NCBI GenBank assembly: GCA_964348895.1
Contig: CAYGEH010000001.1
Location: 182,610-246,609, forward strand
Direction of reading: 5' to 3'
Length of the DNA stretch: 64,000 bases
Source: an uncultured Gammaproteobacteria bacterium
GTDB taxonomy: Bacteria > Patescibacteriota > Microgenomatia > 0-14-0-10-38-17
The translations under genes were made by a program, and so were the position numbers. Below, in pieces: positions 3,038 to 64,000 of this stretch (position 1 is its first letter; each line of letters starts with the position of its first letter). A model generated the notes under the pieces. It ran no database searches and was not told where the DNA came from. It was given only the letters and a program-made list of their open reading frames with translations.

Positions 3038-4074
3038 GACGGCAAATATTGATTAATGTTGTTCTCGTCCACAACAAACTTCTCTCCTTCTTGAGAAACA
3101 ATTTTCTTGGCTATTTGTCGACAAATACCATCAATGTTTCTTTTCAAGGTTCTAACCCCAGCGTCATACCCTAAGGGGCGAACAATTTTAGGCCAAAGAG
3201 AGTCTTCTATCACTATTTGGGTTTCCTTAAGACCAGCATCTCTTAGTGCCCGAGGCAAGAGATATTTTCGAGCGATAATAATTTTTTCTTGATCTGAGTA
3301 AGAGGGCATCGTGATTATTTCCAGTCGATCTAAAACTGCTTGAGAAATGTTTGTGGTGTTGTTGCAGGTTGCAATAAAAAAGCTTTCTGATAGGTTAAAC
3401 GGATAGTCAAGATAATAATCTAAAAATCGATCATTTTGTTCTGGGTCAAGCAGACCCAATAAAACCCCCATAATAGAATCCCGAGATTTTTCGCTAATTC
3501 TGTCAATTTCGTCTAATAGAATAATTGGATTTCTAACTTCAGCCCGTCTTAGTCCTTTAATAATTTGCCCAGGTTCAGCTTGAGGTAGAGATCTCGCTTG
3601 GCCTCGTAAATAAAAAGGTCTTTCAATCCCACCAAAGGGGATTCTAATCATTTTCCGCCCCATGCTCTCGGCGATTGAGGCAACCAAAGTAGTTTTGCCA
3701 GTTCCCACTAATCCCACTAAACATAAAATTGGTGCTCGAGCAACCTCTCCAGCCCTAGACTTTAACTCCATTACCGCCAAATACTCTAACACCCTTTCTT
3801 TAATATCAACCAACCCATGATGATAGCTGTCTAGAGTTTCTCTTGCTCTTGCCAAGTCTAATTGATCAACAGTTTTCTTTTCCCAAGGTAAATTAACAAC
3901 CCAATCAATGTAAGCGGCAATATTGTCATACTCTTCAGAAAAACCGCCGAAACGAAGAGAAACTCTTAGCCTTTCAATTGAAGAAAGAGTCTTTTCTTCT
4001 AAGTCTTTTGGTAGTTTGGCTTGAAGAACTTTTTCTTTAAGTTGATCAACCTCAACTAGGTGATTTTCATTCAT
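3031..4074 (-). CDS. Lon-like AAA+ ATPase module lacking both the N-terminal LON domain and the C-terminal S16 protease domain
   Basis: Aligns by eye to E. coli Lon from about residue 250 to 600: YIDWVVNLPW, Walker A LVGLVGTGKTTL, Walker B ILLDEIDRIS, sensor/arginine region DRLEIITMPSYSDQEK. It ends where the protease domain would begin. Confidence 0.75.
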   Translation of the reverse strand: MNENHLVEVDQLKEKVLQAKLPKDLEEKTLSSIERLRVSLRFGGFSEEYDNIAAYIDWVVNLPWEKKTVDQLDLARARETLDSYHHGLVDIKERVLEYLAVMELKSRAGEVARAPILCLVGLVGTGKTTLVASIAESMGRKMIRIPFGGIERPFYLRGQARSLPQAEPGQIIKGLRRAEVRNPIILLDEIDRISEKSRDSIMGVLLGLLDPEQNDRFLDYYLDYPFNLSESFFIATCNNTTNISQAVLDRLEIITMPSYSDQEKIIIARKYLLPRALRDAGLKETQIVIEDSLWPKIVRPLGYDAGVRTLKRNIDGICRQIAKKIVSQEGEKFVVDENNINQYLPSW

Positions 4075-20816: not shown

Positions 20817-21006
20817 TTCTCTTTGTTTTATTTCTTTTTCAAGAAAACCTAGCCTTTTTACTGTTTAAATAAAAACTAAGATTTGTTTTTATTTAAGAAA
20901 ACAATTAGCAGTTAAAAATGGCTAATTGTTTAATTGTGGGTAGTGTAACATAATTAAAACTATAAGTCAAGACTCGTTTTTCTGTCCTCCTTCGTGGCTT
21001 GAATAA

Positions 21007-21461
21007 TCAGACTAACATCGCGTGTTGGCAAAACCTCTTGACCAGCCCTGGTAATAATCTCTCCTTTTCTACTCTTTGTCCGTTTTGAATTAGTGGTTCA
21101 CCAACAAAAATATATCTTCCTTCTAGCTTGCCATCTTCACTTGTAAGTATGATTACTTTTTGAGGACTGTTTTTCCCTGACCACTCCACTCTGCCAGAAA
21201 AAACAGCATAAATGGGCTCTTCTTTTAGAAGAAGAACTCCCCAGTCACTAACATTGTAATCTAGTTGAACTTTTTTCCCCGCAACAATCTTTCTTCTTCT
21301 ACCGGAGGCCCAAAAATGTCAGCTGGAAGATAAGGAGCTGGGTCTGGAAGAAAAACTTCTATTTGAGATTCTTGAGGCGGAGGAACCTGAAGGTCGACTT
21401 TTTCCCCTTCTCTTCTTGTTTGAAAAATAAAATAAATCCCCCAACCGACTAAAGTTAACAA
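21007..21461 (-). pseudogene. Frameshift-split gene for a small membrane-anchored protein with a beta-barrel-like (M23/LytM-like, non-catalytic) C-terminal domain
   Basis: ORFs 21261..21461 and 21007..21189 are joined by a single +/-1 shift near the G4A6 run at about 21263-21319. The second frame is open from 21318. The fused product is about 140 aa with an N-terminal TM segment. Confidence 0.4.
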
Positions 21462-21842
21462 CGCTAATCCTAGTGCTAAAAAAAAGAAGAAACTTTCGCC
21501 TGCTATTTTTTTGATAAGACAGGGCTTTAATAATAAATTGATTGTTTTTCTTTTAGAGATGTTAACATCTAACTAAAGAATAAAGAAATAAACGACAACT
21601 GTCAAGAGAAACACACTATAATATAAATAACAAACTGAGTGTTTCTGTCATTTGATTTAGAAAGCTATTAGCATTCTTTGTCGAGTAAGCATTTTTCCTG
21701 CTTGCAGAATCGTCGTCTTCTATTCTTATTCTTCTTGGTGTTTGTTAAACCATAAGTTACAATTTACAAAAACTCTTCTATTCCAAACACCCCAAATCCT
21801 TAAAAAAGACCAATATATCCGACAGTCCTCCCCTCCAGAGCA

Positions 21843-59780: not shown

Positions 59781-59904
59781 AAAAATAAAAAATTAAGGGT
59801 ATATTTTATAAATAAATTCAAAAAAACTAGTTTTTTACTTGGTCCTTTTTTTATCACAAACAAAAGAATAATTAGTTTTTATTTTTTTTAAAAACCTAAA
59901 ATTT

Positions 59905-60921
59905 CTATCTGAATAAATCAAATACTTTTCCCCATTGTCCCAAAATAAATCTATTCGTTTTTTCCAAATTTTCTAAAAATATCGTTAATAGGTTTTTCTT
60001 TCTTTTCTCCTGTATTTCTCGATCGGCTCTTGCTCCCAAAACAGCAACTTCGTCATAAAACCTCATTTTAGTATCTTCAATGTCTTCTCCTAAAACTTCT
60101 GGCCAAGCAATCATTTGTTTTTGCATTTCTTCTTCCTCTTGAGAAATTCTTTCCGGTAAAATCAAATAAGAAACTGAGGCTAAATCTTTTAAAACATTGG
60201 TGCCTCTCCCATCATTGGCCAAAACCATTGAGCTTGGCAAAAATTCTACTTTCACTATTCCCGGCTCCTTCCCTCTAAAGAAAACCGTGCCAAATGTACC
60301 CTGATTTGAAAAAAATCCTGGATTGGGCAAACCTCCAGTAAGCCTAACATAGCCAATCTCGTTGTTTATTTCTTTTTGAATGAAAATATTGGCAAATGAT
60401 TCTTCAATTGAAATTTCTACCACTTCTATTTTGTCAGGATCAAAACCCAAGTCTGCCTGAACTGCATTTATCGGCGTCTTAATCCCAGTTATTTCTACGC
60501 TCATCGGAAACAGTTCTCCTAGTCGATACTGCCCTCGAGAAGGAATAATAAAAGAAACAGTTTTGGGGGTTGGGGGAAAACCAAGCTTGAAAAGTAGTTG
60601 ACTCTCCACAAAAACTATGCCCAAAGAAATAAGAGAGAAAACCAGAATTAGCCCTCCATTTAAAATTGCCGAAGAAAGCCCCGCAGGAGATAAGCCCTCG
60701 CTTTTATTGATTTCCCGACGACAAAAGAAGCACCTTCTTCCTTCTTTTCCCGCCCGACATAGGAAACAGGCAGTTTGGGCTGGAGCAAACAGCCACCAAA
60801 TAGGGTAAGCAATCGCCAAAAAAACGCCAAAAATTGCCAAAACATGAATCAAAACCCAAGAGGCAATAAGTAGGGGAATAATAAATAAAAGTAGCTTAAG
60901 GCTTGGTATTTTGGGGTTCAT
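59905..60921 (-). CDS. Membrane-anchored protein with CxxC-x9-CxxC loop and an extracytoplasmic cohesin-like domain
   Basis: Three N-terminal TM helices around CFLCRAGKEGRRCFFCRRE. Residues ~130-250 (FPMSVEITGIKTPINAVQADLGFDPDKIEVVEISIEE...GYVRLTGG...GTFGTVFFRGKEPGIVKVEF...ANDGRGTNVL) match the cohesin beta-sandwich sequence pattern. Confidence 0.5.
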   Translation of the reverse strand: MNPKIPSLKLLLFIIPLLIASWVLIHVLAIFGVFLAIAYPIWWLFAPAQTACFLCRAGKEGRRCFFCRREINKSEGLSPAGLSSAILNGGLILVFSLISLGIVFVESQLLFKLGFPPTPKTVSFIIPSRGQYRLGELFPMSVEITGIKTPINAVQADLGFDPDKIEVVEISIEESFANIFIQKEINNEIGYVRLTGGLPNPGFFSNQGTFGTVFFRGKEPGIVKVEFLPSSMVLANDGRGTNVLKDLASVSYLILPERISQEEEEMQKQMIAWPEVLGEDIEDTKMRFYDEVAVLGARADREIQEKRKKNLLTIFLENLEKTNRFILGQWGKVFDLFR

Positions 60922-61997
60922 TTGTCCAGATAAAACAATAAAATTGAAAAGTCGATCGCATTACACTCGCCGTCATCATTAAGATCACAATCTGAAATAT
61001 TAGCATAAACCTCTTCCCGGCTGGTTATCGCAACCAAGAATTGCTTCCAGTTATCAACCCAACCGCTTACCGCATCATATAGTTCGCCCCCCTCTATCCT
61101 ACCATCTTTATTAACATCAAAAAAAGCTAAAAAAGAAGGAAGAAGAGCCAAGGGTCTGGTTATTTCGGGAGTAGGGGTTGGTAGTTTAGCTTCTGGGGGC
61201 ACAAACAGAGGAGGCGGAGTTGGTAATGTTAATGGGCCCGGTGGGGGCGAATCGTCTAGGGGAAAACTGGGAAAGATGGTCCTGTTAGTGGCAAGATAAC
61301 CCGCTTTTGTCGCTTGAAAAGCACATCTTCCTGCCAAAACTCTACAGGTAGCTGGAAAAACAATTCCTTCAGTTGTCCACCCTGAACTAGGACTAGCTGA
61401 ACGAACAATATTTAGGACTTGACCGTCAAGGTGATTCCCCACATAAATATTTAAAATGGCAGAGGGAGAAACCCTTGGCGTTGTCGTTGAAATCCTCCAT
61501 TGCAAGGCTCCATCGACCACCACTCCTGACGGAAAACCAGACAAAGACCGGAGAGAAACGGCGGCGACAAGAAGGGAAACTGGGTCGTATTTTGCCTCAT
61601 CTTCTCTGGTTATGGCCGTATTTTGAGGTAAAATAATTCTGCTAAAATCAGTAGAAACGGGAATATTAATTGTAATTTGAGTCGAGGCAAGAAGAGAAGA
61701 AACAAGAGTGATGGTGTCTACTGAAGGTTTTCTTAACAGGCCAGCGGCAAAAAGGGAAGCTACTTGGTGGGGGGCAACATTATCAGGGTCTATCGCTGGA
61801 ATCAAGCAGCCAGAAACATTGAAAGTGCAGGAAGTAAAGGGAAGATTGTTGTTCTCATAACACAGCAAGTCCCCGCCTAAATAACCTAAATTAAGACAAG
61901 TTCTGTTTTGTAAGTCGCCAACCTCACATTCTTCATTGCTTTCTACCGTGCCATCACCACAAACATTTATTCTCACCGTTGCTTTAATGTTACCCAA
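60918..61997 (-). CDS. Secreted protein with N-terminal Cys-rich repeat (CGDGxVExxEEC type) and C-terminal type-I dockerin domain; true start probably at 62124 with a homopolymer frameshift
   Basis: C-terminus FDVNKDGRIEGGELYDAV...DLNDDGECNAIDFSILLFYL is two canonical dockerin Ca-binding loops plus helices. N-terminus INVCGDGTVESNEECEVGD matches the Myxococcus-type Cys-rich repeat. The listed start is TTG. The frame stays open upstream to 62111, and an ATG at 62122-62124 in the +1 frame encodes MNKLTLPFQSKKK, which joins a hydrophobic signal h-region if the T10 run at 62085-62094 were T9. Confidence 0.6.
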   Translation of the reverse strand: MGNIKATVRINVCGDGTVESNEECEVGDLQNRTCLNLGYLGGDLLCYENNNLPFTSCTFNVSGCLIPAIDPDNVAPHQVASLFAAGLLRKPSVDTITLVSSLLASTQITINIPVSTDFSRIILPQNTAITREDEAKYDPVSLLVAAVSLRSLSGFPSGVVVDGALQWRISTTTPRVSPSAILNIYVGNHLDGQVLNIVRSASPSSGWTTEGIVFPATCRVLAGRCAFQATKAGYLATNRTIFPSFPLDDSPPPGPLTLPTPPPLFVPPEAKLPTPTPEITRPLALLPSFLAFFDVNKDGRIEGGELYDAVSGWVDNWKQFLVAITSREEVYANISDCDLNDDGECNAIDFSILLFYLDK

Positions 61998-62120
61998 ATG
62001 GCTTGTTGCTTTTGCTTCTTTAACCCTAGAGAGAAGAATAATTTCAAGAAGTAGGAAAAGGAAAATTATAAAAAAAAAGGGTAATTTTTTTTTTGCTTTG
62101 GAAAGGAAGGGTTAATTTAT

Positions 62121-62774
62121 TCATTTTTCTTTTTTCTCCTGCTTGTCTTCTAAAATAACCTCTTTGGTGGTTTTAGGTTTTTTTAGATTAATTTGAATAT
62201 TAAAGAATCTTTTAAAGGCTAAAAGCAGAGCTACTATTGAGAGGAAAATTAACCCCCGCTGTGGCCAAGGAGCATAAACTCTAAAAAAACTAATTAACTT
62301 ATAGTAAAGACCAGAGAAAACATTAGTTGGCTCAACGGTAAAATAGAGTCTGGCAGCAGCAGCTATACCCACTCTGGTTTGGCTCTCCTGAGCCGTTTCT
62401 ATTGGACGAGCCTCCAAATAAGCAAAATAATCACCTGGCTCCATTCTTAGGGGCAGATTAAGCTTGACATCAACTGGCTTGACTTTGCCTGGTTCTAAGT
62501 GAAAAGTTTTAGGAGAAAAAATAAACCAATCCTGCTCTGGTTTTTTTTCTGGTTGCTATTCGTGATATTGAATTGAAATTTCATAATCAGAGGGTTCTCC
62601 TCCAGTATTTAAAACCGTAAACGAAGGGAGCTGATAGATCATTCCCGGCTTTAGCTTCTCATCAACCTGAATTTTACCCACCCCTACCCCCACGCCTATC
62701 TGGGCTAGGGTTTGACTAAAAAAAGAAAGAAAGATTGTTAATAAAAAAAAACAAAAAAACGTTAACCGTTTCAT
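62121..62774 (-). pseudogene. Signal-peptide protein with C-terminal TM anchor, interrupted by a single in-frame TAG (62556-62558)
   Basis: ORFs 62556..62774 and 62121..62444 are in the same frame. The only interruption is one TAG (...ISIQYHE*QPEKKPEQDWFIF...MEPGDYFAYLEARPIE...), and the frame is otherwise open. The product would be about 217 aa: signal peptide, beta-rich ectodomain, C-terminal TM LIFLSIVALLLAF plus KR-rich tail. Confidence 0.5.
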
Positions 62775-62830
62775 TGAAACAATTATACACTAAAAGAGAA
62801 AGAAACAAACTGGTTTATTGGAGAAAATCA

Positions 62831-63340
62831 TTAAAGTGTAGCCTGAACAATCACATCTACATTTTGCGCAGTAAAGACGGTTGAAGGGTTTGGAGCAGTA
62901 ACTTGTAAGTTAAGGGGTGTTGTGCCAAGTGGTGCCACTGACGTTGCTAGGTTTTGATTAGTAAGGGTTAGGGGGGTCCCGCCAGAAAAGGTGCTACAAG
63001 TGGTGTTTAAATATCGATGGACATATTGATCTGCCCCTGGTGTAGCCGCCAGCGTCCAGTTGGCCGAATTAGTCCCTCTGATGTTAAAAGTTGCTGACAC
63101 ATTACCAGTATTAGTCACCGTTTGAAGTTCGTTTGCTTCAGTGGTACAGGTGCTTCTGCTGGTATTGGCTGGTATTATGCCGTAAGCAATTGTCCCATCT
63201 GTAACCGAAAGGGCTATGTTTTGGACTGTAACTGTTGCTATTACTGTGCTCTGGGCCCCAGCATTTCCGACAAAGAAAGAAGAAACTACGAGTAAAAAAG
63301 AAACTACGAGTAAAATGGCAGAGAAGCGTTTTGTTTTCAT
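62831..63340 (-). CDS. Small secreted beta-rich protein (paralog B), pilin/adhesin-like, unknown family
   Basis: Signal peptide containing an 18-bp tandem duplication. Shares motifs GTIAYG, TFNIRG, WTL, QYVH and C-terminal VDV(I/T)(V/I)QA with the neighbouring paralog; 169 aa. Confidence 0.55.
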   Translation of the reverse strand: MKTKRFSAILLVVSFLLVVSSFFVGNAGAQSTVIATVTVQNIALSVTDGTIAYGIIPANTSRSTCTTEANELQTVTNTGNVSATFNIRGTNSANWTLAATPGADQYVHRYLNTTCSTFSGGTPLTLTNQNLATSVAPLGTTPLNLQVTAPNPSTVFTAQNVDVIVQATL

Positions 63341-63396
63341 TAGTATTTAATAAAACAGATTGTAATTTTCTTGTCAAGAGGTATTTTTCTTTAAAA

Positions 63397-64000
63397 CTAT
63401 TGAACTGCCTGTATAGTTACATCAACTGCTTGCTGGCTGTCACAGAAGGAGAGGCTGGGAACAATGATGCGTAAATCAAAGTTCCTAGAGGCACTTTGGG
63501 CAACATTAGTGTAGAGAGCTTGATTGGTCGTGGTTAGGGGAATATAGTTGGTTGGCGGGCTAGTACAAGAAACATCGGTGGTTCGGCAAAATTGATGAAC
63601 ATACTGATTGCTGCCAATAGTTGAGGCCAGCGTCCAAGGACAGGGAGCATTCTGCCCCCTGATATTAAATGTTACCGTAACATTGCCGTTATTCTGGGCA
63701 GTGATAGTCCGATTCATATCGGCAGAATGAGTGGCTCTGGCGCCTCCAGGGGGAACCATCCCATAGGCAATTGTTCCGTTGGCGGTAATCACAACCGAAA
63801 CAACGGCTGTTGAAACTTCTTGCCATTGAAAAGAAAACTGAAAGCGAATATTTGTATCTCCTGCCGCTGCTTCTTGAAAAAGAGCAATCCCCTCGCCTGG
63901 AGAAAGGATTAGTTCGTCGCCAAAAATAATTTGTCTTTCATAAACACCAATACTTTGATTAACAACCCCAGGGGCAGTAACGCCAAGCAAGCGTGAGTCG
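63397..64000 (-). CDS. Secreted beta-rich protein (paralog A), partial, continues beyond window end
   Basis: Same motif set as paralog B (GTIAYGMVP, VTFNIRGQN, PWTL, QYVHQF, VDVTIQAVQ). No signal peptide within the window and the reading frame stays open to position 64000. Confidence 0.5.
   Translation of the reverse strand, partial: DSRLLGVTAPGVVNQSIGVYERQIIFGDELILSPGEGIALFQEAAAGDTNIRFQFSFQWQEVSTAVVSVVITANGTIAYGMVPPGGARATHSADMNRTITAQNNGNVTVTFNIRGQNAPCPWTLASTIGSNQYVHQFCRTTDVSCTSPPTNYIPLTTTNQALYTNVAQSASRNFDLRIIVPSLSFCDSQQAVDVTIQAVQ

Follow-up and report, generated by a model that had tools for sequence, protein, structure and literature searches.

The dockerin gene of this locus has a start codon and a lysine-rich signal-peptide start that do not share a reading frame with the rest of the protein, and the question is what kind of event separated them. 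A sequence-only reading had placed a homopolymer length change between the two parts and had offered a phase-variation switch or an assembly error as its cause. Its description of the site holds in the sequence: the T10 and A9 tracts (forward strand), the listed TTG start, the frame that is open to 62111 but has no ATG, and the ATG in another frame are all present. The features are listed in Table 1; the window is the whole stretch of 64,000 nucleotides that was analyzed.

Table 1. Coordinates of the dockerin gene, its 5' tracts and the neighboring genes in the window
Feature	Position	Strand	Remarks
Predicted ancestral ATG start of the dockerin-protein gene	62122..62124	-	4-nt ATGA overlap with the TGA of the upstream gene (62121-62123)
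A10 on the gene strand (T10 on the + strand), candidate site of the +1 insertion	62085..62094	-	Only run of at least 10 in 64 kb
T9 on the gene strand (A9 on the + strand), alternative site of the +1 insertion (T8 to T9)	62070..62078	-	
TGA closing the 26-codon frame opened by the ATG	62044..62046	-	Sequence as it stands
Body of the dockerin gene	60918..62111	-	Open frame of 397 codons plus stop
Upstream gene: signal peptide, conserved domain of an uncharacterized family, C-terminal membrane anchor	62121..62774	-	In-frame TAG at 62556-62558
Downstream gene: 338-aa membrane protein with a weak cohesin-like domain	59905..60921	-	ATG shares an ATGA overlap with the dockerin-gene stop
Intact 169-aa secreted protein, operon member	62831..63340	-	
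1074-aa protein, C-terminus	63397..64000		Upstream of the 169-aa gene

On the gene strand, the A10 tract starts thirty bases past the ATG and is followed by a 6-nt spacer (TTACCC) and the T9 tract. Together the tracts occupy the region 30 to 54 nt after the ATG, where a 1-nt change in length decides the junction between signal peptide and body. As the sequence stands, the ATG frame translates as MNKLTLPFQSKKKITLFFYNFPFPTS and ends at the TGA. The hydrophobic core, an AKA cleavage motif and the 397-codon body are in the +1 frame relative to the ATG, and the body is free of stops over all 397 codons. The body frame contains no ATG, GTG or TTG from 62111 down to TTG 61997; this TTG and GTG 61976 are its first canonical starts, and both lie past the predicted signal peptide. 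The ATG of the dockerin gene overlaps the TGA of the upstream gene (ATGA), indicating a translationally coupled start.

The predicted signal peptide comes into frame only after a conceptual 1-nt deletion, with MNKLTLPFQSKKK as its charged start and AKA at -3 to -1. Removal of one A from the A10 tract gives the repaired N-terminus MNKLTLPFQSKKKLPFFFIIFLFLLLEIILLSRVKEAKA followed by TSHLGNIKATVRINVCGDG..., with the cleavage point between the two and the mature part beginning with TS. Removal of one T from the T9 tract gives MNKLTLPFQSKKKITLFFIIFLF..., which contains KKKITLFFIIFLF and is equally good. The canonical signal peptide expected by the sequence-only reading from deletion of one T in the T10 run was thus obtained, and deletion in the T9 tract works too. 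The 15-residue hydrophobic window scored 3.23 (Kyte-Doolittle) in both repairs, and since the two are equally good, they do not assign the mutation to either tract. With A9 in place of A10, the tract would encode Lys-Lys-Lys in the positively charged start of the signal peptide, and the T9 tract encodes Phe codons of the hydrophobic core.

Relatives were collected in a scan of one genome per species (GTDB representatives), a set from which the window's own species is absent. It yielded 228 relatives; the 80 best loci were retained, and they came mostly from Patescibacteria/CPR-like and DPANN-like metagenome-assembled genomes. The 5' end was read in approximately 22 relatives; in each of them, a single frame runs through the start codon, the hydrophobic signal peptide and the V[KR]I[ST][VI]CG[DN]G motif. 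The best orthologue (L091, a JGI metagenome contig) has a fully syntenic operon that encodes, in order, a large protein, a 170-aa protein, a 227-aa protein, a 377-aa dockerin protein and a 336-aa cohesin-like membrane protein. Both junctions of this operon show the ATGA overlap, and the N-terminus of its dockerin protein, MKCKGTIIIINLISIALVVFLF..., is in frame. The identities between the proteins of L091 and those of the window are 42, 52, 36 and 65%, the last value being that of the cohesin-like membrane protein. A 4-nt ATGA/GTGA overlap of start and stop is found in L006, L007, L008, L015, L018 and L048 as well as in L091. No 5'-end frameshift was detected among the relatives examined (approximately 22 plus L091). 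The alignment of the L091 and window dockerin proteins begins at residue 26 of the repaired protein, upstream of TTG 61997, and the window gene needs a 1-nt deletion to match its intact orthologues. Judged by these orthologues, the repaired reading is the ancestral gene, which bears out the proposal that a homopolymer length change separates the ATG and the Lys-rich start from the rest of the protein. The closest database protein (P0002, 41 to 44% identity) ends at a contig edge and is therefore uninformative on the N-terminus.

After the remainder of the signal peptide, the body frame continues with a Cys-rich DUF4215-like module, which is a weak match in the repaired protein, and with a middle domain; a Pro/Thr linker then leads to the type I dockerin at the C-terminus. 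The Pfam model Dockerin_1 (PF00404) matched residues 373 to 399 of the repaired protein with 27.5 bits (cut-off, 22.9). Gene callers place the start at TTG 61997 or GTG 61976, giving a protein of 359 or 352 aa, respectively. From the homology, this called protein is a shortened gene-calling artifact, and the ancestral product would be a 401-aa secreted dockerin protein, which the annotation of the gene should reflect.

The dockerin gene belongs to a five-gene operon (59905-64000, minus strand) that encodes, in order, a large repeat protein, a secreted protein of approximately 170 aa, an anchored protein of approximately 210 aa, the Cys-rich/dockerin protein and a cohesin-like membrane protein. 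The operon is also present in L091 (29-5093), L006 to L022, L048 and L064; it is conserved in many CPR-like and some DPANN-like metagenome-assembled genomes, with its genes linked by ATGA overlaps. In the window, the match of the 338-aa protein to the Pfam Cohesin model (E = 0.003) is below the cut-off. A scan of 59800-64000 for promoters and terminators gave nothing beyond shuffled expectation. Many genes of the window are joined by 4-nt ATGA overlaps instead of being preceded by Shine-Dalgarno-like cores (GGAG, GAGG, AGGA or AAGG at -22 to -4), which were found before 3 of 48 gene starts when the longest-ORF starts were used; Shine-Dalgarno sites were therefore dropped as an arbiter between starts.

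The gene directly upstream of the dockerin gene is also broken. Its in-frame TAG divides a product of approximately 217 aa into called ORFs of 72 and 107 aa, which should be annotated as halves of one gene. In 17 of 18 relatives, this gene is a single ORF of 198 to 218 aa directly upstream of the dockerin gene, and in L091 it encodes 227 aa. The column of the TAG holds K, E, Q, D, G or N in the relatives and K in the closest one, and a single AAG-to-TAG change would suffice to create the stop, which is present in six assemblies. Recoding of TAG or a changed genetic code was ruled out, as TAG terminates 25 of 75 long ORFs; by these comparisons the stop is a nonsense mutation. Being a substitution, it rules out a homopolymer miscall for the upstream lesion and would not be revertible by repeat slippage. 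An in-frame variant of the upstream gene was not found, the four TAG-reverted proteins being absent from an exact look-up of approximately 15 billion sequences. Searches of Pfam, NCBIfam and PDB sequences returned no match that names the approximately 210-aa family. The orthologue of the upstream gene in L029 (a Parcubacteria metagenome-assembled genome; 3382-3978) has an apparent in-frame stop of its own: the ORF ends at 3627, but one tblastn alignment covers 3430-3978.

Runs of 6, 7, 8, 9 and 10 bases occur 224, 98, 40, 7 and 1 times, respectively, in the 38% GC window. One run of 10 is about the extrapolated expectation, and the length of the A10 tract alone is unremarkable. KKK occurs eight times in the window's 47 intact genes and is never encoded by an uninterrupted 9-mer (AAAAAAAAA; approximately 3 expected [38%], P ~0.02), nor is FFF in its two occurrences (TTTTTTTTT). 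This suggests that in-frame 9-mers are selected against in the coding sequence of the window, indicating that the 5' end of the dockerin gene is unusually prone to slippage. Such a 5' end fits a realized hazard and likewise fits a maintained switch. Among the relatives, the L091 5' end has no long homopolymer run, and the others have runs of 5 to 10 bases at varying places, which can be attributed to the Lys (AAA) and Phe (TTT) codons of AT-rich signal peptides. The dockerin orthologue of L008 (Beckwithbacteria) has a T10 in frame within its signal-peptide coding region, at approximately 4014-4023, indicating that tracts of this length are tolerated in frame in relatives.

The reading that is preferred here, with a probability of roughly 60%, is that the dockerin gene carries a real slippage mutation which is fixed in a clonal population, the allele being null or leaky and its operon undergoing inactivation. 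Replication slippage would have added one A:T pair in one of the two adjacent homopolymers, a change from A9 to A10 being likelier than one from T8 to T9, since slippage increases with run length. Ribosomes starting at the coupled ATG would terminate after 26 codons, and initiation at the downstream TTG or GTG would yield a protein without an export signal that does not reach the cell surface. The dockerin protein is most likely not exported in the sampled population. At the cell surface, the dockerin would bind the cohesin-like protein of the neighboring gene, and this interaction would be lost without export. With ATGA overlaps linking one gene to the next, premature termination would be expected to lower the translation of the cohesin-like gene further downstream as well. 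The allele would then be null, or at best leaky, and fixed in the clonal population that was sampled across several runs. The independent TAG in the coupled upstream gene indicates that the operon is most likely under inactivation in this lineage, either by recent pseudogenization or by selected loss of a surface structure. That the 397-codon body has no further stops suggests that the event was recent, and the intact body would also fit a reversible OFF state or continued expression by slippage. Genetic reversion by slippage at the A10/T9 tracts is plausible, at a rate far above that of point mutation such as has been measured for the poly(A) tract of inlA (PMC2831843), and a small share of frame-restored product may plausibly arise through RNA polymerase slippage or ribosome sliding on AAA codons. 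Disruption of the frame relative to the orthologues and the apparent presence of the lesion in the DNA itself are both as expected of a young pseudogene.

That the true tract is A9 (or T8) and was systematically miscalled is very unlikely. The tract is the longest homopolymer in the window, and one sequencing chemistry may underlie all of the data; however, A10+T9 is found at identical length in five assemblies from different runs and two pipelines (Logan ERR3094287, ERR3094290 and ERR3094301; ENA ERZ27247798 and ERZ27247794), which are 100% identical to the window over 3 to 10 kb. All of these assemblies represent one clonal population, probably from one study with one sequencing chemistry, so that fixation of A10+T9 applies at the consensus level and a minority of in-frame cells may be present. 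Inside intact long ORFs of the window there are 254 other homopolymers of at least 6 bases (25 of at least 8 and three of 9), indicating that the data are not prone to homopolymer miscalls. The lesion in the adjacent gene involves no change in homopolymer length, and the frameshifts of an M23 peptidase-like gene elsewhere in the window, located at short runs, are equally reproducible. The one-base insertion in the DNA is real, an assembly error being unlikely, and the miscall raised in the sequence-only reading is largely excluded. It is scarcely credible that the annotated TTG or GTG start is genuine; the product would then be nonsecreted and stay in the cytoplasm, and the ATG frame upstream would have no relevance or would encode a short leader peptide. 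Gene callers picked these starts, but the homology to L091 and other relatives reaches upstream of the TTG into the hydrophobic core, a signal peptide is present in all relatives that were read, and the ATGA coupling at 62124 is kept in relatives. Cys-rich and dockerin modules are extracellular in cohesin-dockerin systems, which also counts against a cytoplasmic product.

A phase-variable contingency locus, in which A10/T9 is maintained as an ON/OFF switch for a surface dockerin protein and all samples happen to be OFF, is unlikely, and it is rather less likely that the tracts switch both the display of the dockerin and, through lost coupling, the cohesin-like anchor in a small-genome, probably Patescibacteria/CPR-like bacterium. 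The classic layout has a hypermutable tract where the signal peptide of a surface protein is encoded (PMC2831843), and the repeat of the dockerin gene is placed so that changes in its length switch expression. The intact gene body fits this explanation, as does the retention here of uninterrupted KKK/FFF 9-mers that are avoided in other window genes. Against it, a single tract length was observed, at the consensus level, in the five assemblies, and the tract is neither kept in orthologues nor over-long for the genome: the closest syntenic orthologue (L091) has none. An ON state was not found, as both repaired 401-aa proteins were absent from an exact look-up of approximately 15 billion sequences and the protein search returned only the shortened calls of 352 and 359 aa; an exact-match scan of JGI metagenome contigs gave no other tract length in the same strain. 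The coupled neighbor is disabled by a point nonsense mutation that repeats cannot reverse, which points to loss of the operon over switching. Of the original proposal, the mechanism of disruption stands, whereas the switch is not favored, given that only the out-of-frame allele was seen and the tract is not conserved. To our knowledge, there is no earlier example of repeat-mediated phase variation in the Patescibacteria/CPR-like group, and a literature search found none for this group. If reads showed tract-length heterogeneity, the locus would be a candidate phase-variable locus in a group with no known example; without such heterogeneity, it would be a routine young pseudogene, a known kind of event. 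Functional recoding, in which loss of one A/U by RNA polymerase or a +1 slide of the ribosome keeps the frameshifted gene expressed, as rescue or as a programmed event, is quite improbable. Slippage is known to occur at A or T runs of at least 9, and consecutive AAA codons allow ribosomes to slide (PMC5009743, PMC4363877); background on poly(A) rescue in endosymbionts is cited in PMC5574713. The slippery A10/U9 sequence is present, and the open body frame is intact. However, the frameshift is missing from all relatives examined, indicating that it is not a conserved programmed event, and at -2.6 kcal/mol (z = +1.05) the A10-loop-U9 hairpin is weak and does no better than shuffled sequences, so that neither a stable local structure nor a stimulatory one is seen. 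A genome-wide survey of Buchnera did not find restoration of frameshifted genes at the transcript level (PMC5574713), and the product of any rescue would probably be a small fraction. Rfam gave nothing at the dockerin locus and only three tRNAs in the window.

Classical phase-variable surface genes include the opa genes of Neisseria, with CTCTT repeats, and loci of Campylobacter and Neisseria with poly-G/C tracts. In these as in the dockerin gene, the repeat occupies the 5' end of a surface-protein coding sequence, and a change of frame would abolish the exported product. Their tracts are conserved, over-long for the genome and variable in length among isolates and within populations, none of which was seen at the dockerin locus. 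Poly(A) tracts at the 5' end are known hot spots for the inactivation of surface-protein genes, as in inlA of Listeria, where a frameshift in a 5' poly(A) tract cuts InlA to 8 residues (Orsi, Bowen and Wiedmann 2010, PMC2831843). In both cases, a gene for a secreted or surface protein has a poly(A) run a few codons past its ATG, and a 1-base change in that run leaves a short peptide; such a tract mutates far faster than by point mutation, and the lesion is potentially reversible. For inlA, both alleles have been observed in strains and reversion has been measured, whereas for the dockerin gene only the out-of-frame allele was seen. The dockerin gene further differs in that T9 adjoins the A10, in that its host is an uncultured bacterium, probably Patescibacteria/CPR-like, and in that the neighboring gene is also knocked out. 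Frameshifts in poly(A) tracts of Buchnera and Blochmannia, for which transcriptional slippage was proposed as a rescue (Tamas et al. 2008, as cited in PMC5574713; PMC3017870), share with this locus an AT-biased small genome in which long coding runs of A or T lead to indels and young pseudogenes. There as here, RNA polymerase slippage could give some in-frame mRNA; for the dockerin gene such rescue is at most a possibility, and the later genome-wide survey of Buchnera did not recover restored frames.

Signs of decay in the window are not limited to the operon. An M23 peptidase-like gene (approximately 20900-21560, minus strand) is disrupted by two or more frameshifts, which lie at short A runs; conceptually repaired, it matches PF01551 across a junction (Pfam, 1.3e-8). 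Two additional independent assemblies (ERR3094291 and ERZ27247823) reproduce the region with 100% identity. The ATG of the M23-like gene is possibly out of frame as well. Further signs of relaxed selection are mixed: the dockerin body is without extra stops, whereas the coupled upstream gene has a TAG and another gene of the window has multiple frameshifts. Two lesions in adjacent genes, with approximately 3 damaged among roughly 60, are estimated to be only weakly nonrandom (P ~0.1). Two independent knockouts of a conserved five-gene surface-protein operon in one clonal population suggest loss of, or selection against, a cell-surface structure.

Among the genomes with the operon, L006, L011, L013, L015, L018 and L035 are third-party metagenome-assembled genomes titled "uncultured Gammaproteobacteria bacterium". 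They bear the CPR-type operon, the identity of the upstream gene in them is 51 to 66%, and their taxonomic labels look doubtful.
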